A stretch of DNA of 59,477 nt, filler included, from Sphacelaria rigidula (Eukaryota), in assembly GCA_964200075.2 (NCBI GenBank). It is 5 parts of 5 records of this genome, joined end to end, with 100 filler letters (N's around TTAATTAATTAA, not from the genome) between each part and the next. Parts side by side here need not be neighbours in the genome. Positions count along the whole stretch, not along the records: positions 35,750 to 47,564 come from CAXNAA020004468.1; 4 more parts are not named here. The stretch is one strand, 5' to 3'. Below, piece by piece: positions 11,818-53,588 of the stretch. The translations under genes and the position numbers were made by a program. The notes under the pieces are model-generated. The model had not been told where the DNA came from. It saw only the letters and a list, made by a program, of their open reading frames with translations, and searched no databases. How positions within the stretch are numbered: the stretch's first letter is position 1; the number at the start of each line of letters is the position of its first letter.

Positions 11818-11917
11818 NNNNNNNNNNNNNNNNNNNNNNNNNNNNNNNNNNNNNNNNNNNNTTAATTAATTAANNNNNNNNNNNNNNNNNNNNNNNNNNN
11901 NNNNNNNNNNNNNNNNN
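11818..11917. other. Artificial contig linker N44-TTAATTAATTAA-N44
   Basis: Identical 100-nt structure occurs four times at ~11.9-kb spacing; the 12-mer gives stops in all six frames. Confidence 0.97.
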
Positions 11918-23734: not shown

Positions 23735-23834
23735 NNNNNNNNNNNNNNNNNNNNNNNNNNNNNNNNNNNNNNNNNNNNTTAATTAATTAANNNNNNNNNN
23801 NNNNNNNNNNNNNNNNNNNNNNNNNNNNNNNNNN
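23735..23834. other. Artificial contig linker
   Basis: N44-TTAATTAATTAA-N44. Confidence 0.97.
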
Positions 23835-31152: not shown

Positions 31153-31296
31153 GGCAAATGAAAAACAGGAAAATATTTCGCGAAATCTTTCAAGAGCTGC
31201 AAAAATAGGATTGTCGAAAAAACGATCAACAGTAAAAAACTGTCTTCCTGCCCGCCGCCCTCCCACAAAAACCAGACTGTCTTGCCGAAACTATTT

Positions 31297-31357
31297 CTAC
31301 ATTATTATTATGATGATTATTATTATGATTATTATGATTATTATGATTATTATGATT

Positions 31358-31388
<31 letters not shown>

Positions 31389-31991
31389 TTATAATGATTA
31401 TTATGACTCTTATTCTTATTCTTATTCTTATTCTTATTATTATTAGTATTATTATTCTTATTATGATTATTCTTATTATTCTTATTCTTCTTCTTATTAT
31501 TATTATTATGATGATGATTATTATTATTATCATTATTATTATCGATTATGATTATTATTATTATTATTATTATTATTATGATTTTTATTTATATTATTTT
31601 TATTATTATGATTATTATCGATTATGATTATGATTATGATTATGATTATGATTATGATTATGATTATAATTATTATGATTATTATTATAATTATTATTAT
31701 AATTATGATTATGATTATTATGATTATGATTATTATTATGATTATTATTATGATTATTATTATGATTATTATGATTATGATTATGATTATGATTATGATT
31801 ATGATTATGATTATTATTATTATGATTATTATGATTATTATGATTATTATGATTATTATGATTATTATGATTATGATTATCATGATTATTAGTATTATTA
31901 GTGTTATTATTATGATTATGATTATGATTATGATTATGATTATGATTATTATGATTATGATTATTATGATTATTATGATATTATTATGATT
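31297..31991. repeat. Compound microsatellite (ATT/ATG/CTT, GATTAT)n, ~700 bp
   Basis: Directly visible; it generates the poly-Ile/Met/Asp-Tyr pseudo-ORFs. Confidence 0.97.
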
Positions 31992-32648
31992 ACTAGAAGC
32001 TGTCGCTGATCGATCTCCCGATCAGAGGGGTATGTTTACTTCGTGGTACGTCGCCGAGGTTTTCTCGAAATATGTTCGGTGACAGATCGTCAGGTTGTTG
32101 GTCGGCCAAGTTCGAAGTTCACCCGGAAAGTCGTTTCTTTCTGGCAAGATATAACAGACAAGTTTAGTTGCTTATGTCACCTCATGTGGTTCGATTGCGG
32201 GTCACAACGTCAATGAAGTAGTCTACGGACAATATACATAAAAGACAATCAATACAACCGCCGGTTGATTGATTGATTGATTGATTGTCGCACTTCAACT
32301 GCCGGTAGTGGTGGTATTGCTCGAGTAAAAGAAAGATGAAATGCTATTATTAAACATGAACTAGGTTTATGAAATATCCGGTGATGAACAGTATCACGGT
32401 ATCGTTTGGATTCGTCGAGTGCATGTTTTGTCGGGTTCTACATGATCAACGGGGACATTCAAATAAATACCCATTTTATTAATGTGACGATGAAAATAAA
32501 GGAAAATTGTCGCCGCCATGGATACTCTGCGTGGTAGGCAACACATATAAGACCCCGTAGGCGTGTGAACCGGCCCGGCTTGGTTGTCTCGCAAAGGAAC
32601 CAGTCTCCAGCCATGCAAGCTCATCCTCTGGCCATTATTCCATTGCAG

Positions 32649-35649: not shown

Positions 35650-35749
35650 NNNNNNNNNNNNNNNNNNNNNNNNNNNNNNNNNNNNNNNNNNNNTTAATTA
35701 ATTAANNNNNNNNNNNNNNNNNNNNNNNNNNNNNNNNNNNNNNNNNNNN
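35650..35749. other. Artificial contig linker
   Basis: N44-TTAATTAATTAA-N44. Confidence 0.97.
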
Positions 35750-36676
35750 CGAGGCGGAGCGCTCGGGGGGGGGGGGGGGGCGCGCGGGGGGGGGGGGGGG
35801 GGGTCGGGGGGGGGCGTACTCATTTGTTGATTGCCTTAGTTGTTTGGCCATTGACCACGAATCCCATTCGAGACGGAGCATGGAGGGTTAGGGGAGGTAT
35901 GGATATAGGTAATACAACCCTCGCCAAATTCGATCGAGCCGATGACATTTCTTGGGTCCAGCGGATCAGCGGAGTGGAGGCTGTCCCACGAATGATGAGC
36001 TTGAGGGGGGACGCGCGGAGATATGTCCCTGGAATTTGCAGCTGAAACGTTGTGAAACTTGCCTGCCTGCATGCAGTTCGCTGAGAAAATTATCAGTAGC
36101 TTGCTACCGGTTTCTACTGCGAACTCGCAGCAATGCTTGCTCGTCTGATGCTCATAGAGCACCGCGCAAAATGAAGTTAGGGGCGGCCGCCACTATCGGG
36201 AACTCAGCCAAAGGCTCAAGCTGAAAGTCGAACGCATGTGAACATGTAAGTTACATGGCCAAGAACTATGCTGGTTGGTATGTCAAGCCCGTAATCTACT
36301 TCGATCCAAAAGGTGTGACTCCCTTGGACCAGAGCCAGACGATAAAAGAGTAAAATTCACGACGAGTTTTCCCCGCGGCTCACCCTTGCCCTACGAAATT
36401 CTACCGTTATCCCCGTCTGCTGGCCTGATGAAAGAGCTGGTGGCACACAGATCTGAGTAAGTTATCCCCGGTGTTACGTTTGGGTCGATACTATTATTAT
36501 CTCTAGTAGGGGACACGCACAAGACAAGGGGGAAGGGGGGGGGGGGGGGGGGGGGGGGTGGGAAAAAGGGCGGCAAACCTCTAACCGGAGGGGGAAAGAA
36601 AGAGGGGGGCGCCCGTCATTTTAGGAGNNNNNNNNNNGTGTGTCGTAGGGCGCGGGGGGGCGGGGCGGGCGGGGGG

Positions 36677-36722
<46 letters not shown>

Positions 36723-36752
36723 CTGTTGGTCAATAAGCGGACACACTCTTAC

Positions 36753-39700
36753 CACTGCCGTGAATACAAGAGGCCGCGCCCTGCTCCATTTGACGTCCAT
36801 AACGTTTGCGTTGGAGGGCTCGAAGGTGAAAACGGGCCTGAACAACAATGACCAGAGGCACAGGACCCCTCGTGCGATAAATGCCAGATAGAAGAAGAGG
36901 CCTCTCCGGTAAAGTGCACGCACGGAAACGTTCACGTCCGTCGTCGGTTCAGACGGCGGGGGGAAGCGAGGGTATTTCCCCTCTCTGCCGTGAGTCATAC
37001 GGTCTCTCGCAAGGTCCCTGTTCGTCAGGTTTAAAGACTGTCGTTCTTCTTCTCTAGGTAACTCAACGTTCCAGTACCCTGCTCTCGACATAGGACATTT
37101 AGGATCAGCATGGATGATGATCACATCGCTGAGGTGTATTATCAACGGGTCTGTTTTCCTTCCCCTCCCCGGAAATTTCCAGATGTTTTGGAGAAAAATA
37201 GTTCTTCGAAAAATATGAGAGCAGGTTTCTTCACCAGGTCAGGCAATGCATCATTTTGAGACTGGCTACGATACGATTTCTCCGAAAATCTGTCATCGGA
37301 CATTTCCCAGCAGATATCTCTTGAAAAAAGAGCCTGAAACAAAAAAACTCTCGGCAAAAGCCGAAAAATCTCAGGAAAACGCACCGTTACTAGGACCTCC
37401 AACACTCGGGTCAACTTCAACATGCACACCTTGGAAGTACTTTCATTTTCACATCACCTGCTCTGGAGAGTATTGTACAATCGAGCGCAACCGTCCGCGC
37501 CACACGAGAGGAGCAACGCCCTGTTGGCAACATCACCAGCAAGGACACGGGGCGGAGATATCGTCCGTGGATTTCATCATTAGCTGAAGTCGGTGTGGCT
37601 TTCGAAATCGGTCCCGTGAAAGTCGTGCTACAAAGCCCGGTGCGACTCAAATCGTGACTTGAGTGTCCAGATAATGCGTCTTGTCCACTCCAGACGAAAT
37701 GGATCGAACGCGCTCAGCTATATTATACACTCCCACAATATATCTCGTACTTTCCGCATAGCCCACTTGTTGTGCACGCCCAAAGCAATCCGATGGAAGG
37801 TACTCGAAGTCAGTGCCTGCTCGATTCTCGGGATGCCAGGTAATATTGCGCTAGGCAAATCATCGTGAAATTTCTACTGCGGGTGGTTCGCTCGCTAGCT
37901 TACCTGTGAAACGGAGAGCAGTCGATGGCGTGCACGGGGCCGTGATGATTCTCCATCCTGAATAATCCCGGCGACGGGTACAACCCGGAAGCCTCCAAGC
38001 GTGATCGGTAAATCGCGGAAGAGCGTGATTGGAAGATCGCGGACACGTCGACCTGCGGTAGGGGCGTTTAGGCAGTGGTGTGTTGCGATTGAAAATAACA
38101 AGAGCGCAGCGTGTTCAACCATAGATTTGGGGCGCCGGATTGGGGAGAACCTACCTCATCGGAAGTGTGACGCGTGAATTCTGCTGACAGTGCATGTACT
38201 ATGTGCAGGGGTGATGAACTCGCTCTGCAATTCATGTTCAGATTATGTGTGTGTTGTGTGTTGTCATTCCACCTATTCTGGACGCCGGTCTACACCTTTC
38301 GGTATATGTGGGCGCGCCAGCCGGGGTCACACAGGAGGAAGGACAACCTATCGTTTTTTGTCTCTTGTTTGTTTTGGTACTCCACCTTCCTTCTGCGATG
38401 CTTGCTCTTATTTTTTATCGCGAGGGGGGTTCAGCGATCCCTTTCCATCGTCGACCATTATGTCGAATTTTGTGCATCCACGACATAGTCGCTCTCCACT
38501 GTTGGGTACTGTGTGAGAAAAAATCCCAGATCGCTCCGAGATCCGAACCCGCAACCCTACCGTCAGAAGGTTTCGAGGCTACCAACTGAGCCACCGGGGC
38601 GGCAGGCCACGTATGTGCAAGCTTTTCAGGAGCTGGAATGTATACCTCTGTTCCCCGGGAATCCTTGACCGCACTCTCCACTTCTCGTACAAGCTGCCGT
38701 CTCCCTTTGATGGGAACCCGACTCAGCAACTCTTCCGCCTCGGGCGTCCATCGGAGGTCCTTCCATTCGTCCGCTTCTTTCTGTAAGGGGGACATTATGA
38801 CAGAGCCGGAACCACAACTGCGCATAATTTGTATCATCCTCCTTTCCCGTGGACGTCTCTTAGGTTCAAGGTTACGAAACTGTAAGACCAACCCTCATGG
38901 AACCAGGATCAGATGGCACTGAATGCCTTCAGCACTTTGAATGCGATCTTTTCTCGAGATCAGGGTTACCAGAGCAAATCTTTTGGAAGCGTTTTCCCGG
39001 GTTGGCTGAGGCGAAGCTAATGGTGAGGAGACGCACCCAAGCCAATTTTTCGTCTTGCTAATATTGGGTGATTGCACCTTCTCTTTTTCTCATTATTTCT
39101 TCTTGAAACGACCATTTTCACTACAAAAATCAGCTGTGAATATGAGAGTTTTATGCAGATGACGCGAAACAGCCACTATTTCCCTCTGCACGAACAGAAA
39201 ATTGGGCACACGATATCGACAGATAGCCGATAAAGAAACGAAGTTTCCCCTCATTTCGTCTGTGGAAAAAGGCGAACAACGCCTCCCGGACATATGGTGA
39301 TCCAGGAACCCCGATCCCAGGGAGGAAAACGCCCTCAAAGTACCGAAAATATCCTATTTCATGTGTTTATTTTTCGGCTCAACCATATTTCATCTCCTCT
39401 GCCTCCGACATGCATCAAACCTGTTCCCGCTCCTTGGCCATCTCCTCGTGATATGCATTTTCTACAAGGCAGAAACATGAATCAATCGGAATATCATTGA
39501 AAAAATCCTCCCACAAACACTTGTTCGGCAGAGGGAATGTCCATCGACATGAGGTCATCTCGTCAGCAGCAGCAGAAACGTTCGCTCTCAGTGAAACAGG
39601 TTTCTGTAACATGCGCACATCCCGGGGCCAAGCCCAAAAATCTTTCGTACTTTGTTGGCTCCTACTTTGAAGAGTTGAACACGGTGAACGAAGTAACACG

Positions 39701-42700
39701 TGGCTGGCGCAGTACTGCCATGCTTACGTCGAAGTTGTGTCATATCTCGGTCATCGCAGCTTTCACGCAGGGAAGTCGTCGAAGGTACATCAAGTCCAAC
39801 AGTTTGAACGCCCGACAGATCGCGTTACACGGGTCGATGAAACCGCGGTCATGACCAAAACGCCGCTACTCGTGTAATACGGGTAATTTTCTTCATTTTA
39901 TTTCATGATCCTACGCACAGAAAACCGTACCTCGGTCTATCCTACTGACTACCGCGCTCACCCATCCATATACAAAAACGCGACTACCCTGCTGTGTTGC
40001 CTTAAACATGTGTACCAACGAAAACGGAGAAAAAACAAGCGGTAACATCATTCGGCCACCAAAACGGCAAAATCTCTATTCCATCGACTCGCTATACTCC
40101 TGACACAAAGACGCACATACCTTAGTGGATGACACTAATCTGCACTTGACCACTGCTCCCCCTTCTGTGCCAACGACTGCGGAGGTCACGTGTCGTCCCT
40201 CCCTCAGGAACGACACCGAAGTGCAGCCAGCCTGGTTCATGCACGAGGTGTGGTGTTTTATACAACTAAGGGAGACTCCGTCAGAATATCACAACCATGA
40301 TTTGATTCTGAGATGTGTGTCCTTTTTTTTTTTTTTTTTTTGCACTTTGAACTCTTCCCCTTCCTCGGGACGAGTTCGTGGTCTCAAGGGATCAACCCAT
40401 CTATCCCCGGTAGTATACACAAGTCCTTATGTAGATACACTTTTGAATTGCACTTGAGGAATATGTAGTGTTAACCGCATCGAGGTTAATAGTTTCTGGC
40501 TTCTAGCTGTCTACCCTCTGAACAGTGACGGCAATCACCGGCAAACGGTGCAATGGAATGACTTTCCAACGCATAACCACAGATGCACGGGATTATTAGT
40601 ATGGGCCGGGAGATGGGCGCATACCTACGGAAAACGGACTTCACCGCTACATGAGAGCTTTTTTTAATCAAGAGAGTAGTGAGGAGTGTGTGCGCTGTCC
40701 AATATATCTCGGTGTGTTTTGAAGAGAAGCGAAAACACACAGAGTACTTGTGCAGATACCCTGTTGCAGGACGCTGTACCCGTTGTAATCGCTGATATCG
40801 GGCGGGTGCTTTTTCATGGGGCTTGAGGCGGTGACTATGTCCCCGCGGTGTCGGGTACAAGGTGGACATTACCCAGGACGGCTTCCAGAACGTTGCGAAA
40901 GCGATATTTGGTGTTTGGAATCCTCTCAAATGGGGGTGGCGCAGTGTGTGTGCGGGATCTTGCATGCTTGTGGTCCTCTCTTGAACGTTTTGCGTAGCGC
41001 TCGACTGACCATCCTGTAAACCATGACAGTAGCAACTGTTGATAATCTGTGCAAAGCCTCACGGATTCGGCGGACTTACCGCATCCCTGGACATTTCCAT
41101 TTTCACGTCCCACTGACGACGAACCCTTACTCGAGTACACAGAGAGTGGTGCAGTAGAACAACAAGTGCCAACAGTGTTACAGGGCTTGAACCCCTGCCG
41201 GTTGCTACCGCTGCATCCTTAGAGTGGAGCACAGTTTGTACAAAAAACGATCGTCAGGCAAGAAGTACGAGCTCCTTTCGTGTCCCACCTTTATTGACAG
41301 AAATGCCCTACCCTCTACGTTGTGTCTGTTTCCATCGTCAACTCCTCTTTGGGAATTCTCCACGTTGCTGGGCATAGTCCTGCTGTACGCACGCTCCCAC
41401 TTACCGCACGGGCACTTGCTGACGCAGACCTTGACCTAGCGCCCTCGTGCGGTCCTGACTTTCTCGCCGCCCCCGGCAGCCAGTACCCTTCCACAGGCCA
41501 TTGCAGATCGTTCTTCAGAGACCAGAACAGCAGCTAAATCCGTTGATATCGGTTGCACACACGATCACGGCGGCAGCGTAAAGCAGAACGCAAAGAATCT
41601 TCCCGTGGCGTCTTTATCGTACCATCCGTTTCGAGTACTATACGTGACGTGAGAAGAGCGAAACGGCGAACAAACTATTTGAGGGTTGGAACAAACAACG
41701 AGCATTAGAGGGAAGTGTTTCCAACCTTGGTCTGCGGCGAATCACCGGCCGACGTTTGTTGTTTCACAGCAGTTATTGGTACATGCTGCATACAGTACGT
41801 ACGTGCAAGACACGAGGTCAAGTGACAAAAGGTTATTTTGCTCCCGATCCCGCGAGACTGGAGATGGCTACCGGCACAACCATGGTTGCTGTGATCGTCC
41901 CGCTTGAATCCCCCCGCTCTATTTTGTAGTGCCACTTATTCTGCATCCGATTGGTTCGCAACATGAGGCCATTCGAGTTCCGCCGAAAAATACACGAGGT
42001 GATGGAAATGACAGTCCGGCAAGCATGCTGTAGTATGTATTTGTTTACCTTCCCGTCCCCAGATACAGCGGCTAATCGATAGTCACCGTCCTTCGCGCTG
42101 TACACCCAGGAGAGCTGCACAGAAAAAAATCGCAACGGGTAGGCGGTATGTGACGTGACCCTTTCATCGCAAAGCATGTGGGAATTATTCTCCCAGACAC
42201 ACTCGTATTGTCACAAATTTCATGAAACAATTTTTTCGCGAGATTGAGAGTAGAGGATATGATCGAGAGTGAAAATCGGTCAATTAGTGGATGTATCGTT
42301 TCAGTTCCGAAATGTCCCTCCCCGAGGCCGAATATGCTTTCTGTAGTAGCTTGCCACTGAGGCCCTTCATATCCCTGAGTAGGATATCGATGTGTAGCTG
42401 TAAACACACGCAAGTGGTGGAGGCAAAGAAAAGCACACACGGAATAAAAAAATACCCGCGTCAAAGCGAATGATCAAAGCCACTCTCAATCAGCACTCTA
42501 CTCTCAATCTCACGAAAACGTTGTTATAAGTCGTGTTTTGGATGAGATGAAGGGCTCCTAACTAACAATTCCAACCTCGGAAAATATTTGTACACCCCTA
42601 CCGTAGCATCCCTCATTCGGGGATTCAAAAATGGACCAGTTTCGCCGTCAAGGGTCTAGTTGCATCCAGGTGCCATGCATGCCACGCACCGTACCGCTGG

Positions 42701-45700
42701 AACATGTTCTGGCATTCAACACGTTAGGCCTGGCTCAGCTTGTGCCGTCACTCCCGTGCAGGTATGAGACCGCTCAGATGTATGTACATATATATATAGT
42801 GCCGTTAACACGCACCGCGGTGACTGGCTCTCGATGAAAAAGATCATCGATCTTGGTTGTTGCCAACAACGGCTCATCCTTTGCAATATCCCACACGATA
42901 ATCTGTCGACGCACAGCAGCAGCAATCACGACACGAACGAAGCATGGCCGAAGCATGGCCGAAGCATGGCCAATACGGGTGTGCATTTCGGTGAGCGACA
43001 CGGGAAGACGTACTCGCGCAGGAGACTCTCAGCATGTACCATAGTACCAACCGTGTCGGAGTCGGGAGGAAGCGATAGCGCTTGCGCTGCACCACCCACC
43101 GTTGAGCCACACAAAGCAACACTAGCACTTCGGGGCCGCTTGGCTCGCATCGAGTCACGACGGCACAGTCGTCTGTTCCTTGGGAATGCCGACGTGATAC
43201 AAACCATTGTCGCCCTTCGGTAACCGCTTGTTGTGTATCAAGGCCAGGGGGTCAACATTTTGTGCATGATCCTTACCTCGCCGTTGAAAGATCCAGCGGC
43301 CACAACAGCAGGCCTGACCGGGTGACAGCTGACGCACATAAGACAACTGGTACGAGAACCACATTGGCGTCGCCACGTGCGTGTGAAAAGAAAGAAGCGG
43401 GGGGGGGGAGGGGCATCGGGCGAGCGTAGGACCGAGGGGCGAAGAAACTAGCTTTATCGTGCTGGCAGCGTGGCTGAAATGAACGCAGGTATCGGACGGT
43501 CGCCGTTTCGGATTGTTCAAGGTTGAACGGTACCATTCTGGACGCATCCTCGTTCGCTTTTCAGCTGCTACAAAAGGGAAAATCTCGTGGTGGTATAATT
43601 GTTTTGGTGCCCTGCTATAATAAGAGCCGTTTCCTTCAGCCACACCGTCATCTTTTGGAAGAAGTCAAGACGTGAGTGACACATGTCATCACTCGCCCAG
43701 TTCAAACCGCATGCGCGTCACGCATGATGCACGACCACTGAACCGACACAGAATGCACCAGAAAATACACTCATCACGTGTGTGCTCATCAGTTGTCAGG
43801 CCAAGCCGTGATATGCGTGCTCTCATTGCTTCATTATGCGTCACATTTCGGGGAACACTTGCGACAATATCGCTGTCTTCATTCTCCGCCGTGGGACACC
43901 TGCTATGATCCAGCACCAAGTCTGGGGCGTGTTCCTGCTCCTCGCCGAACCCCCTTCGGAAGATATTCCACGTAGCAAGCGCTCCCGGCAACTCGCACCA
44001 CCCGACAATGTCGATTCTGTCCGGAGAAACAGAGCACACAAAGTCAGAGTCAAAGCAGCGAGCACATCAAAAGCCCTTCACAAAGCTTGATGTGGTAGCG
44101 ACATGGAGCTCGTGTACCGTCCCGTCACATCGAGAATACAAACCAAGTCATATCATAAGGATAAACGACGTTGCCGGGGCACGCCCGCTTCCGTACGATG
44201 AGCTCGATTCGAGAGAGCGGTTATACTCACTGCTCACACTTGTCGTGCCAATATCCACATTAGGGTCTGGGGGTGCCGGAAGCATGAATTAATTGTACCA
44301 GCTTACAGTCACGGCTTATCATGTCCTGCATTTAAACACAACTTCCAACACTGAGTCTAGCAGTCCTGATTGCTTGCTGCTCACGACCCAGACATACCGC
44401 ACCTAAACAGTCACGCGTTCTGCGCCTACTGCTGTCTTCTCATATCGTTTCATTTCGCCGCCAACACGGTTTGGATATAGCTGCACACCTGCCGAAGGAT
44501 GCCATCACAACGGAACCGGTCGGACTCCAGTCCACACCGGTTACTTGCAACGCCTGTCATCGGGGACATCGGACATCGGGAGACCTACGTGATGATGGCC
44601 GTTCAGTTGTTCCTAGCATATGCGTGTTGCACACCCCTCTGAATATCCACGTATAATCTACCAGCAGCACTACCCTTCTGGCACTCCCTACCGCACATAG
44701 CACTTCCGCGTTGCGGCCAAACAGCGGGAAGCATACCACATCGAGGGTCCAAGTAAAACATGTTGGATTGCAGTTGCCCTGAGCGATTGGTCTGATTAAT
44801 TACTGTACTGCTCCAGTGAAGGAAATATCACTGCGCAGCTCTGCGGAGCGCTGTGCGGGGCACTTGTGCCACATTCATTATTTCAACGAACATCTTATGG
44901 AATCCAATCTCAGAGCGGCTTCTCTTTTCGCAAATAAACACGATAGTCCGCAGCTCCGCTCACCTTGACATGCTTCGAGGAACTTTTTCCAATTCTGCTT
45001 GCCATGAGATTCGAGAGGTCGCACGACAGCGTCAAGTGCAGCGCGATGTTGTTACCCCCGCCTTCCTCTAAAGGGGTGTATCCAAGGAAGGCCTGAGAAT
45101 GCACCGAAACAACGCCGATCTCGACACATGTAGGGTGGGCCACGCTAGCGTGTTGTCAGATAGACACCCGTCTGTTTTCTGGCTCTGGGGTGGTTTCTAT
45201 GGCCAGCACTCAAACTGAGACCGCCGTGTACAACGTGTAACACTAGGTTCGATTTGCCCGCTTGTTGCGGTGTAGACCATGGCCTAAATCCGACGCCTGG
45301 GGCATTTAGTTTGTTGTGGATTCAGATCTGTTCCTTCAGTTTCTATCTGCAACACGCTAGCATGGCCTACCCTACATGTGTTGAGGTCGTATTGTAGCAG
45401 CGGTGTTACATGGGTCCACTGTTTTACCGGCGATGAACAGCGCCGTTCATCATCTGTGCCAGTAATCGCGAATCGAATCGCCCTTTAATCCATATAAAAA
45501 TACCAATATAGATACTAATACGATACATTAGGCTACACATTTTTCTGCAATTGCTGTGGCGTCAGCAAAACAATGTGTGAAAAAAATTCTCCTTCCGCGG
45601 AGTTTCTCAAAAGTCGCCCTTGCATGTTTTTCTCCGGAACGTTCACCCCCCATCAAAAGGTTAATACCAAGACATTGTCATGCATAAGGCAAAAAAAATG

Positions 45701-45898
45701 GGTAGCAAACGTCTAGAGATGGACGTGCTGGCTCTACACCCGCACCTGACTAGCGTCCGACCTGTCAAGCTCTTCGACCATCAGAGGGCCCGCTTGGATC
45801 AAAAACCGCTCGACACCTGCAGGCATGTTTTTCCAGTCGTCAAATCCCGAGAACGCCTCGGGGTCTGCCCTACCCTGGCTATCTCGATCTGTCTGTGT
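36753..45898 (-). CDS. WDR34: Cytoplasmic dynein-2 (IFT dynein) intermediate chain WDR34/DYNC2I2/FAP133, WD40 propeller; 13 exons, first and last exons not found
   Basis: Exons 45746-45898, 44964-45092, 44489-44553, 43900-44016, 43277-43346, 42816-42902, 42049-42114, 41405-41533, 40121-40231, 38646-38780, 37904-38052, 37458-37520, 36753-36837. All are AG/GT-bounded and phase-compatible: 1359 nt without a stop. Motifs: TQT; RFLIQAGPLMVEELDRSDASQAF; VTGVDWSPTGSVVMASFGR; ALATWNIFRR; CLMCVSCHPVRPAVVAAGSFNGEIIVWD; HREPVTALSW; VSGDGKLLFW; VGTEGGAVVKC; HHGPVHAIDCSPFHRALLLSCGADG; VKWSRARPLVF. These follow the order I recall for WDR34. Confidence 0.92.
38258..38601 (-). mobile_element. tRNA-derived SINE in a WDR34 intron
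   Basis: Minus-strand head GCCCCGGTGGCTCAGTTGGTAG (A box) ... GGGTTCGGATC (B box), followed by a ~270-bp body homologous to ~5500-5786. Confidence 0.85.
42510..42609. mobile_element. End of a MITE of the 4356-4602 family, intronic
   Basis: ATAAGTCGTGTTTTGGATGAG..AAGGGCTCCTAAC...GAAAATATTTGTACACCCCTACCGTAGCAT is the reverse complement of ~4356-4435. Confidence 0.7.
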
Positions 45899-47564
45899 CT
45901 GCGATACATCCCGGTGGAGGAGATTGGAAGAGGCGAGCATGTACGGGCACGAGTCCAAATGTCAGCAGCTGACCAAAACCCACAAGGGCACCCTGCATTG
46001 AGTCGGTTTTACAAAGTCCAGTGCCCGGATGTGTCGATTTTGGCGTGTAGACCTCCGATAAAGTAACTCAAAAAGAGAAAAAGTGCAAACTCCGCCATGA
46101 TGCGCGGACGTTCCCGCGATTTCAACACAATAACTACCATCGCATAGTCGCTGGAAATCCGGATCTATGTGTCCCATAGTAAAACTTTGTCCTAACCTTA
46201 CAAATTCTGGGCCGAGGAAAACATCAGAGTATTGTTGGCGAACGTTTGCTTCGTGCACACACAGAGCACCTCCAGAAAAATTGATGAAAAATGCCCCTCT
46301 GTATGGGGAAAGACGTGACGTGGATTTTCGTTCAGTACCGGCCTGTGGTAGGATCCTAAGAGCGTCCAAAAAAAAGGATGTCAAAGTGTGAAGGATCTGG
46401 CGGGATGAAATCTCCGAAGAAACAATCATGCCGGTGTTTTGGGGCCGTGTTCTTGCAGATACGCCGCATGATTTCGCACAAGTCTTGGTGTGTACTGCTA
46501 TCAGTTGTGTTCATCCGGTGAAGAGCTGAACAGCCACGGCAAGGGCGGAGCGTGGGTCGCAGGCGCTAGCCCTTGCCCATCAACACGCAACAGTCTCTGT
46601 TTGACGGAGAAATGTTCTGTATTGGAGGAAGGGCGGCCGCGTTCGTGTGTCATTTTACAGCCAAAAACCTGCCGTTTCTCACCCTTTGCGAGCGTGTGTT
46701 GTGCACGCTTCTCGCACAAATCATCCTCTATCATTGAATTCTGAACGGGGCTGTGTAACATCACGCACGATATGCTCAGCTGATGAGCAGCAGCTATGGC
46801 TCGAGCTGCGTGTTCCTCTTCGACCTGAAAACCGGATCGCTCCTTTAACAAAAGATCTTGGCGCACTTCTATGACGGTGGTATCGAAGCGACCGGTCACA
46901 GGCCGTTGGAGAGAAGCGACGAGTCTGGGAAAATTCTCCGTGATTTCTCTTCTCGCAATTGTATTGGTCGTAGTGAAACATCAGTGGTCAGCGACCACAA
47001 GGCGGCACATGGCGAGATCTGGCATGGACCTACCTGCACAACAACCACACAATCAGTTCTGGCGTCCACTGCCCACGACCAGATAAATCGTGGCCGGCTC
47101 GAGTGGTAGCTTTTGATCAGTTGAGTACGATGCGCTTCCATTGTGTGAATCTCGATCACGGCCTATACAAGAGATAAATATGTAGTTGGCACGTCCCATA
47201 CACGAGATAAATAAGCAGCGGAATTTGTTGCTACTAGAGATCTAGTTGCACAGGTTTCCTATACGAGCGTTGTTCGGAAATGGGTCGCGCGATTTTTCCG
47301 GCCAAGGGCTGTCTACAGGTTCTCATCCTGTACAACACTTTTTTACAGGTAACTACTGTACTTGAAAAGGTTTCCCATCCAGTAATTGCAGTAGTCTACC
47401 GGGAGCTTTAACCCTTTTTGGACCGGACCCCCACTAACACAGGGTCATGTGTTCGTGGAATAAAAAAAATAAGTCTTCGAGCGACCCACCCAATCACAGC
47501 GAGGCGAAATGTTTAGACCAGACCCGAACGACCAGCGCGGGGATTGTTGTCGGATGTGATGCCA

Positions 47565-47664
47565 NNNNNNNNNNNNNNNNNNNNNNNNNNNNNNNNNNNN
47601 NNNNNNNNTTAATTAATTAANNNNNNNNNNNNNNNNNNNNNNNNNNNNNNNNNNNNNNNNNNNN
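47565..47664. other. Artificial contig linker
   Basis: N44-TTAATTAATTAA-N44. Confidence 0.97.
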
Positions 47665-52632: not shown

Positions 52633-53588
52633 TGGAAGTTGCCTGCGCACAAAATACCCCGTGTTACCTGGTTGTCAATTGCACCTAATCAACTCCAATG
52701 ACTACCTCACCTACCCCCCCTCAAGTGCCAACTTGATATGATCCTTCTTACCATCGAGCTTACATTGGCACGATACCTGAGGAGAAATCAATGCCAATGT
52801 ACCGAGCAAGTTTTCAATTGATTGATTGATTGATTGATTGTCGCACTTTAAGTGACCCCCCAGGGATCCAGCCGTGGTCTCATGATAGACGTACTCAAGA
52901 AAAACGGAATTCAAACACCCTCTAAGGGGAAAAAAATAAAATGAACAGAAAACATCAGGAACACATTTGCTTTAAGAATTTCCACCTGCTTGCCATGAAC
53001 CAAACCAATTCCATTTCTACTTCAACAGCAATGAATGCTGGTTGTTGAACAATTCTCATCCTATGCATGAGTTACATTTGCCTTGTGAAGATTACAAACT
53101 ACACGCGGATGTTGTTGTACCTTTAAAACGACTACTTATACTCTCTGTGCAATACCGGTACTGCAAGAAAATCTCACGGGATTATTGAAAACCAAAACAA
53201 GAAGACGAGCATGCAATAGATCTGGCAGCACTTGCAATGCCTTTCATGACACAAACTCGATAACGACTAATGAAACCGCCATTTACATATTCCAGCCCAG
53301 ATTGATGCGCTCAGAGTACTTCTAAGTACCGTCAATCGTTGACACAGATGCTCAGCCCCCCCACCCCCCCCCCCCCCCCCCCCCCCCCTCCCGCGGTGCG
53401 TTTTTTGTGGGTGGCGTGCATTGCGGGTTCTTNNNNNNNNNNTCAATATCCAGTTCACGGGGGTGCGCTTCGACGACTTCTTATGTACGCTCATTGGGGA
53501 CGGACAGTGGCCGCCCCCCCCCCCCCCCCCCTCGTTCATTTCCTGTGATGATGATGTGATCGACGTCGAAGATTCTTGACCAAGATTT

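Follow-up and report, generated by a model that had tools for sequence, protein, structure and literature searches.

A PCP_red-like module nested in propeller blade 4 of the dynein-2 intermediate chain WDR34 of Sphacelaria rigidula

What is the long segment that interrupts the WD40 propeller of the dynein-2 intermediate chain WDR34 in the brown alga Sphacelaria rigidula, and what might it do there? The question is raised by a stretch of 59,477 nucleotides from this genome (assembly GCA_964200075.2), which was analysed at its full length and is called the window below. A preliminary description, made from the sequence alone, had proposed that a domain related to PCP_red (Pfam PF08369) was grafted into one loop of this gene. 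PCP_red makes up the C-terminal end of BchB/ChlB, subunit B of dark-operative protochlorophyllide reductase (DPOR), and it is also found as small stand-alone or tandem bacterial proteins; in BchB, its helices extend across the substrate pocket that belongs to the partner half. Dynein-2 is, to our knowledge, the sole retrograde motor of intraflagellar transport (IFT), and its intermediate chains are usually regarded as uniform across eukaryotes. The analysis reported here points to a WDR34/DYNC2I2 orthologue that probably carries, nested in propeller blade 4, an ancient module of ~50 residues homologous to PCP_red, most likely a rigid add-on docking surface.

The host gene was delimited as follows:

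36747-45907, minus strand: part of the WDR34/DYNC2I2 orthologue within the window, from tblastn with the Ectocarpus protein P0010 and from intron-less contigs; the coordinates give the extent of the matches, not the true 5' and 3' ends of the gene

In the tblastn search, P0010 (611 aa) gave colinear minus-strand matches for residues 50-501, running from 45907 to 36747. Residues ~500-611 were not matched in the window, and the exons of these last ~110 residues were probably not found because of the N-run breaks between pieces. Against PDB sequences, P0010 gave human WDR34 as its best match (E 1.7e-56), followed by IC78 (7.8e-22) and WDR60 (2.8e-11). Against PDB folds, its model matched 8rgg_D best, human DYNC2I2 in its heavy-chain-bound state (E 5.7e-38; next match 4.5e-30), and the naming of the host as WDR34 in the preliminary description was borne out by both sequence and fold. 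The named orthologues that were retrieved include a 'cytoplasmic dynein 2 intermediate chain 2-like' and a 'WD repeat-containing protein 34'. The host gene is an orthologue of dynein-2 intermediate chain 2 (WDR34/DYNC2I2). The AlphaFold2 model of P0010, based on a 50-sequence alignment, had a mean predicted local distance difference test score (pLDDT) of 81.7 and a predicted template-modelling score of 0.77. As read from DSSP, its 28 strands fall into seven sets of four, making a seven-bladed propeller in which blade 7 is closed by the N-terminal strand 119-126; the N-terminal 70 residues are disordered. The GTEGG motif is present in the window protein and was aligned to residues 353-357 of human WDR34.

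Blade 4 and the insert are encoded by three neighbouring exons, with these features:

40121-40231, minus strand: upstream exon, 37 codons, AGCTSV...GTEGGAVVKCRLVSSTK, AG/GT borders
38646-38780, minus strand: PCP_red-module exon, 45 codons (135 bases, phase 0-0), AG/GT borders
38023-38750, minus strand: footprint of the PCP_red-like core of 45 residues, from the W codon at 38748-38750 to the R codon at 38023-38025
37903-38052, minus strand: downstream exon, ending HGPVHAIDCSPFHR, 3' border uncertain by 1 base
37998-38043, minus strand: in-frame tandem duplication of 24 bases (SAIFQSRS / SAIYRSRL), directly after the last helix of the module

The upstream exon encodes strands A, B, and C of propeller blade 4 and, with them, the conserved GTEGG turn (strands 326-334, 337-345, and 350-354 in the P0010 model), and ends in VVKCRLVSSTK before a gtatgt donor. 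The module exon has an open frame on the minus strand, translated as KEADEWKDLRWTPEAEELLSRVPIKGRRQLVREVESAVKDSRGTE, and is bordered by ttacag before it (AG at 38782-38781) and by gtatac after it (GT at 38645-38644). It encodes a linker, a W-bearing beta bridge, helix 1, a VP turn, helix 2, and an EV bridge. The downstream exon starts with VDVSAIFQSR after a ccgcag acceptor and reads in full VDVSAIFQSRSSAIYRSRLEASGLYPSPGLFRMENHHGPVHAIDCSPFHR. It supplies the last helix of the module and the tandem duplication of 8 residues, then completes blade 4 with strand D and opens blade 5 (helices 408-413 and 418-421, strands 426-430 and 437-442 in the P0010 model). The intron 38053-38645 splits the PCP_red-like core, and the span 38023-38750 that was originally proposed for the domain runs exactly from the W to the R codon of its 45 residues, intron included. 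The loop had been estimated at ~85 aa against ~25 in human; from VVKC to HGPV, the alignment gave 88 residues in Sphacelaria rigidula vs 28 in human WDR34, in line with that estimate. Tandem Repeats Finder reported the duplication with period 24, 1.9 copies, and 86% matches; its two units agree at 19 of 24 bases. The intron-less contigs contain it, their listed pieces having 0 other letters, and so does the protein P0103; all 14 orthologue segments of the insert alignment, A2, lack it.

Splicing was followed in the contigs of runs X1, X2, and X3 and of the DNA run X5, which were compared with positions 36745-46000. The runs X1-X4 belong to one study and are RNA by guess, no run containing the stretch being on record as RNA; the guessed-RNA runs contain 9-20% of the sampled words, which is about the exon share of the stretch. 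Record 12 of X3 (636 letters) consists of 41404-41533, 40121-40230, 38644-38780, and 37903-38050, colinear, with nothing between the pieces and no other letters. Record 6 of X2 joins 40121-4023x, 38644-38780, and 37903-38050 without introns, and in record 2 of X1 (1511 letters) 38644-38780 adjoins 37903-38050, with exons 45745-45900, 44963-45091, and 41404-41533 also included. The 2-base offset at 38644/38050 corresponds to the GT common to the intron start and the start of the next exon. Since the contigs bridge the introns and the offset is explained by the shared GT, the two junctions predicted beforehand, 40121/38780 and 38646/38052, are both seen in intron-less contigs. The listed pieces of the DNA run X5 cross the introns unbroken (36745-38296, 38572-40309). 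A deposited partial protein of Sphacelaria rigidula at NCBI, P0103 (VSSTKKEADEW...RGTEVDVSAIFQSRSSAIYRSRLE), is the splice product of the three exons in the window. No exon-skipping contig was found among the contigs listed, where rare variants drop out. Exon 38646-38780 is constitutively present in the intron-less contigs seen, and minor skipped isoforms may still occur. In the same gene, RNA-like contigs run unbroken over 36811-37486, across the predicted intron between the exon matches 37457-37519 and 36747-36914; this signal could come from a retained intron, another transcript, or DNA carry-over.

The relationship of the insert to PCP_red was assessed with Pfam profiles. For exon 38646-38780, PF08369 was the sole Pfam family at E <= 10 (E 4.2e-05, 23.9 bits, profile positions 1-30 of 45), and the spliced product P0103 scored 26.6 bits (E 6.3e-06, residues 163-202 on profile positions 1-40 of 45). 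P0010 scored 19.3 bits and other orthologues 24.7, 27.0, 27.2, 28.5, 27.5, and 21.2 bits, mostly over profile positions 1-44 or 1-45, and the full profile (1-45 of 45) was matched without gaps in P0010, P0024, P0065, and P0077. The insert is carried by 43 of the 50 members of alignment A4, and PF08369 was matched at E <= 0.01 by 38 of the 50, with a best value of 3.2e-07. Among the 43 carriers, W371 and A375 are each conserved in 42, P383 and E395 in 41, A398 in 39, Y/F412 in 43, and V394, E405, L408, and V411 in 38; the near-fixed positions of the insert are those also kept by the PCP_red consensus. The curated gathering cut-off of Pfam for PF08369 is 32.5 bits, and as the scores lie below it, the insert is a divergent relative, not a family member by the rule of Pfam.

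A profile of the insert was built from the 14 insert regions of A2 with their flanks (105 positions) and run against 177,635 distinct PDB sequences. It matched 22 of them at E <= 10, and the 12 below 0.01 were ten PCP_red-bearing sequences and two of human WDR34, the latter via the C-terminal flank only. The ten (E 5.5e-05 to 2.3e-03) comprise eight DPOR subunit B sequences, 8vqh_B (5.5e-05), 8vqi_B, 3aek_B, 3aeu_B, 3aet_B, 2xdq_B, 9buo_B, and 2ynm_D (2.3e-03), and the stand-alone nuclear magnetic resonance structures 2l09_A and 2kru_A, and all were aligned through the C-terminal ~55 residues. The remaining ten PDB matches had E >= 0.024 and were mostly WD40 proteins, aligned via the flank. 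In phmmer, the exon was compared with 1.84 billion representatives, and 18 matches were obtained at E <= 0.001, including eleven with the brown-alga-type segment (P0010 and ten short fragments) and three bacterial tandem PCP_red proteins. The 43 insert slices were also aligned by hhalign to 11 PCP_red units from P0006, P0014, and P0018, which score 125-167 bits on PF08369. The alignment had 97.9% probability and P 3.5e-13 over 46 gapless columns, vs 0.7% for the reversed target and at most 1.3% for 20 column-shuffled targets. Because PF08369 is the sole match of the exon and the segment is conserved in distant lineages, the resemblance is not due to chance. Judged by sequence profiles, which single PCP_red out, the insert is a divergent PCP_red homologue; the fold agrees with this, though taken alone it does not single PCP_red out.

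In the full-length P0010 model, the insert had pLDDT block means of 94, 93, 97, 97, and 96 over residues 371-420. The elements of the module are a beta bridge at 370-371, helices 373-380 and 384-400, a bridge at 405-406, and helices 408-413 and 418-421. By DSSP count, they are placed between strands 350-354 and 426-430, which is the C-D loop of propeller blade 4, and the GTEGG turn lies between strands B and C of that blade, just ahead of the module. When the 105-residue segment was modelled alone, the mean pLDDT was 68, with 76-90 over the helical part. Foldseek with this isolated model against 350,542 chains ranked 2l09 first (template-modelling score 0.70 to the target), 2kru second (0.69), and the ChlB chain 2ynm_D fourth, with a root-mean-square deviation of 1.1 Å over 46 columns and 30% identity. 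A second structural comparison, by VIA-align, did not separate PCP_red from AAA+ lids, and the ESM Atlas gave no usable match with the insert (P0010 365-420). The usual context of PCP_red is the C-terminal end of BchB/ChlB or a small stand-alone or tandem protein; here, it is nested within a WD40 blade.

The distribution of the insert was surveyed in homologue searches based on shared 5-residue words with 8000 candidates; lineages that were not retrieved carry no information on absence. The orthologues retrieved included none from alveolates (dinoflagellates, apicomplexans), cryptophytes, excavates, or amoebozoans, and a third search (27-sequence alignment A3) yielded just partial fragments from brown algae and relatives, with no new lineage. 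In alignment A1, 14 of the 25 orthologues have the insert. The brown-algal carriers are Ectocarpus, Pylaiella, Undaria, Ascophyllum, Laminaria, Hapterophycus, and Sphacelaria, and the oomycete carriers are Saprolegnia, Aphanomyces, Pythium, Nothophytophthora, Globisporangium, Lagenidium, Phytophthora, Plasmopara, and Albugo. The insert was also found in the haptophyte Chrysotila carterae (P0100), in P0099, in several unnamed environmental proteins, and in the rhizarian Bigelowiella natans (P0109), which is grouped with P0099 in a 90% cluster. A further carrier, P0043, is cluster-identical to a protein (P0049) filed under a Nyctotherus ovalis transcriptome set; the origin of P0043 is uncertain, and it sits on a long branch. 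The non-carriers are Tubulanus, two fishes, corals, camel, human, and the green alga Raphidocelis with its neighbour P0038, as well as a clade of five that includes 'ChrysophyteH1' and an MMETSP transcript. As read from the alignment, the five chrysophyte-like proteins keep ~10 extra residues resembling the first helix and the proline.

In a tree calculated with the insert columns removed, the chrysophyte-like clade joins the brown algae and P0023 (Shimodaira-Hasegawa-like approximate likelihood ratio test, SH-aLRT, 95), and the group containing the brown algae and the chrysophyte-like clade lies inside a larger group that is sister to the oomycetes (SH-aLRT 88); the deeper forks are open. Because of this nesting, the lack of the module in the chrysophyte-like clade is read as a secondary deletion, and the clade is best read as having had its module cut down secondarily. 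Brown algae and oomycetes share 27% identity in the insert and 43% in the propeller. On the distribution of the carriers, the insertion is ancient and, far from being confined to brown algae, also occurs in oomycetes, the rhizarian Bigelowiella natans, and a haptophyte. The earlier idea of a lineage-specific graft was abandoned, since the insert occurs in all of these groups. As to the type of donor (ChlB, BchB, or stand-alone), the insert profile scored 21.9-27.1 bits against the PDB members, values too close to name one.

Two other accounts of the segment itself were weighed against homology to PCP_red. One, hardly credible, takes the exon for an artefact of annotation or a seldom used cassette, an intronic open frame with no more than a resemblance to PCP_red. 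In its favour, contigs are unable to show minor isoforms, and a symmetric exon (phase 0-0, 135 bases) can be skipped without loss of frame; against it, three runs have intron-less contigs that include the exon, intron-poor oomycetes and 43 of 50 aligned orthologues conserve the segment colinearly, and its product is folded in the model with a pLDDT of 93-97. It is quite unlikely, too, that the insert is a mere analogue, that is, a convergent helical hairpin-plus-helix or another small fold, such as an AAA+ lid, with no ancestry in DPOR subunit B. Ten PCP_red sequences of the PDB were matched at E <= 2.3e-03, and no RuvB/AAA+ entry was among the 22 at E <= 10; PF08369 is the only Pfam match of the exon; the full-length match is gapless, with W, A, L, VP, E, A, and the E-V/I bridge in register; and the hhalign value stands far from those of its 21 controls (97.9% vs <= 1.3%). 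An analogue would nevertheless fit with Pfam scores that all fall short of the gathering cut-off and with a W-[ST]-P-E start that attracts unrelated repeats as well. Several observations weigh against the favoured reading of the module as a PCP_red homologue in WDR34. The best Pfam score of any individual protein was 28.5 bits, and every score seen was below 32.5; the insert-bearing P0025 (Saprolegnia) and P0043 had no PF08369 match at E <= 1, and P0099 reached just 12.8 bits. The phmmer search also returned four unrelated repeat proteins through the W-[ST]-P-E word (P0002, P0005, P0009, and P0016). The hhalign test is not independent of that search, because its PCP_red proteins were chosen for having matched the exon; the PDB and Pfam tests are independent. 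The Foldseek E values are weak (0.02-0.09, none <= 0.001), with lid domains of RuvBL AAA+ proteins occupying other ranks, and the RNA-like runs, labelled as RNA by guess, all come from a single study. The PCP_red relationship proposed in the preliminary description was supported, each of the checks suggested there having come out in favour: PF08369 was the sole match, gapless over 1-45 in orthologues, and PCP_red structures headed the Foldseek ranking, while the 32.5-bit cut-off was not reached and AAA+ lids were intermixed at E values of just 0.02-0.09. A Myb/SANT identity of the exon, prompted by P0009, was rejected, Pfam having given no Myb match at E <= 10.

If the homology to PCP_red is accepted, the history of the module can still be told differently. 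Instead of being gained once, in an ancestor of stramenopiles, rhizarians, and haptophytes, it may date back to the WDR34 of the last common ancestor of eukaryotes, with later losses in opisthokonts and green algae, an account that is doubtful but deserves some weight. The carriers belong to at least three deep lineages; losses do happen, a loss or reduction being inferred within the stramenopiles; the deep forks of the tree are open; and the carrier P0043/P0049 is filed under a ciliate transcriptome set. Against an ancestral module, neither the sampled animals (Tubulanus, fishes, corals, camel, human) nor Raphidocelis and P0038 carry the insert. The sampling is thin and word-limited, and a single gain and ancestral presence are therefore not properly separated. 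A more specific scenario, rather unlikely as a whole, would be a single ancient capture of a DPOR chlB/bchB-type C-terminus (e.g. by plastid or cyanobacterial transfer) in an ancestor of stramenopiles, rhizarians, and haptophytes, with the captured module tuning heavy-chain shape or train-docking. If true, this capture would be a rare genomic change uniting SAR (stramenopiles, alveolates, and rhizarians) with Haptista and would have left a photosynthesis-derived relic surviving in plastid-less oomycetes, and the module would tune the shape or train-docking of the WDR34-bound heavy chain, like the blade-3 insert of WDR60.

A function of the nested PCP_red-like module has to be sought in its new place. 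The DPOR cluster and substrate residues sit elsewhere in BchB, outside the PCP_red domain. A pigment or redox role is unlikely, because the module is without these residues and is kept in plastid-less oomycetes. The module starts ~10 residues after the GTEGG turn but projects from the C-D loop, which lies on the opposite face of the blade or on its rim. Most likely, it would add a rigid surface to blade 4, at the rim or underside, for contact with a further dynein-2 subunit or with the IFT train, by analogy with the blade-3 insert of WDR60. As described in the portions of PMC10987677 drawn on here, both propellers of human dynein-2 bind heavy-chain bundles 3-4, and the conserved blade-3 insert of WDR60 touches heavy-chain bundle 4 and keeps that heavy chain straight. 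In the same portions of PMC10987677, WDR34 is described as being without a blade-3 insert, its heavy chain bends, and human WDR34 E355 (the E of GTEGG) contacts R587 of the heavy chain. One point tells against extending the analogy to the heavy chain itself: the C-D loop faces away from the B-C turn that touches it, and a heavy-chain contact is thus not implied. Among the roles considered, a rigid extra docking surface for a dynein-2 subunit or the IFT train may be the most likely one, and it is put forward tentatively, as something short of an even chance.

The preliminary description had also called the fusion undescribed, and full-text literature searches agreed: no description of a PCP_red-type module in WDR34 was found in the full-text literature, subscription-only papers and supplements being outside the scope. 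In the portion of PMC13676742 drawn on, PF08369 is merely listed as a label among macroalgal families. Precomputed sub-threshold Pfam lists already flag PF08369 on many of these orthologues. Lying below the Pfam cut-off, the insert would escape annotation by the rule of Pfam itself. What was found is a known protein with a domain inserted into it, and it does not amount to a new kind of system. A conserved, folded, foreign domain in the WDR34 propeller would mean a lineage-wide extra surface on the motor tail and a new context for the PCP_red domain, and it would offer a defined, deletable element for probing the contacts of the WDR34 propeller with the heavy chain or the train. The organisms concerned have flagella-dependent zoospores or gametes and include plant-pathogenic oomycetes. 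As a discrete character, present or absent, the module could also be brought to bear on the disputed deep branching among SAR, Haptista, and neighbouring lineages.

Repeats were noted in the introns of the same gene, one of them within the intron that splits the module:

38273-38601, strand not assigned: high-copy repeat in the module-splitting intron, from X5 contig depth, outside the coding feature

Over this repeat, the summed X5 contig depth was ~1.3e5 to 8.4e5 vs 65-72 in neighbouring bins, and many loose contig ends fall at 38273-38276 and at 38601. In other introns of the gene, 42234-42614 and ~40310-40412 had summed depths of ~1e5 to 8e5 vs ~65-72 nearby, and cross-joints were seen between the repeats 38273-38601 and 42234-42614 (e.g. 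38601 to 42234, 38339 to 42500). All three are high-copy interspersed repeats. A direct-repeat search (seed 12, minimum 40) in 36700-46000 found no family, despite the depth showing high-copy elements. A tRNA-like stretch at ~38540-38600 was rejected, as ARAGORN predicted no gene and Rfam gave no match at E <= 1 in 36000-42000. Elsewhere in the window, N runs of 44 bases come in pairs every ~11.9 kb, at 11818-11917, 23735-23834, 35650-35749, and 47565-47664, and further N runs occupy 36628-36637 and 53433-53442; the piece 35750-47564 has 11,815 bases. Positions 31200-32000 form a long AT-rich microsatellite tract; whichever frame is translated, it yields runs of I, N, Y, D, and H over hundreds of bases.

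Compared with known systems, the module has only a fold resemblance to the AAA+ lid of RuvB and RuvBL1-2, with no sequence-profile similarity. Human WDR34 (6rlb_D, 8rgg_D) is the orthologous seven-bladed propeller and has the GTEGG and H-GPV-DCSPFHR motifs flanking the insertion point; it differs in that the match breaks into two stretches around the insert. The conserved insert of WDR60/DYNC2I1 (8rgh_C), as far as it is covered by the portions of PMC10987677 drawn on, is likewise an insert within one blade of a dynein-2 intermediate chain, but it belongs to the other chain, to blade 3 instead of 4, and to another loop, and the WDR34 module is a recognisable imported domain whose contact is putative. 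The closest likeness is to PCP_red itself (3aek_B, 2xdq_B, 2ynm_D, 8vqi_B; 2l09 Asr4154, 2kru), with which the module shares ~45 residues in a gapless W/A/L/V/I-P/E/A/E-V/I register and the same predicted secondary structure, and its predicted model superposes on 2ynm_D, 2l09, and 2kru. In contrast to those proteins, it scores below the Pfam cut-off, has no link to tetrapyrrole chemistry, is found in plastid-less oomycetes, and is nested in the WD40 blade of a eukaryotic motor subunit.

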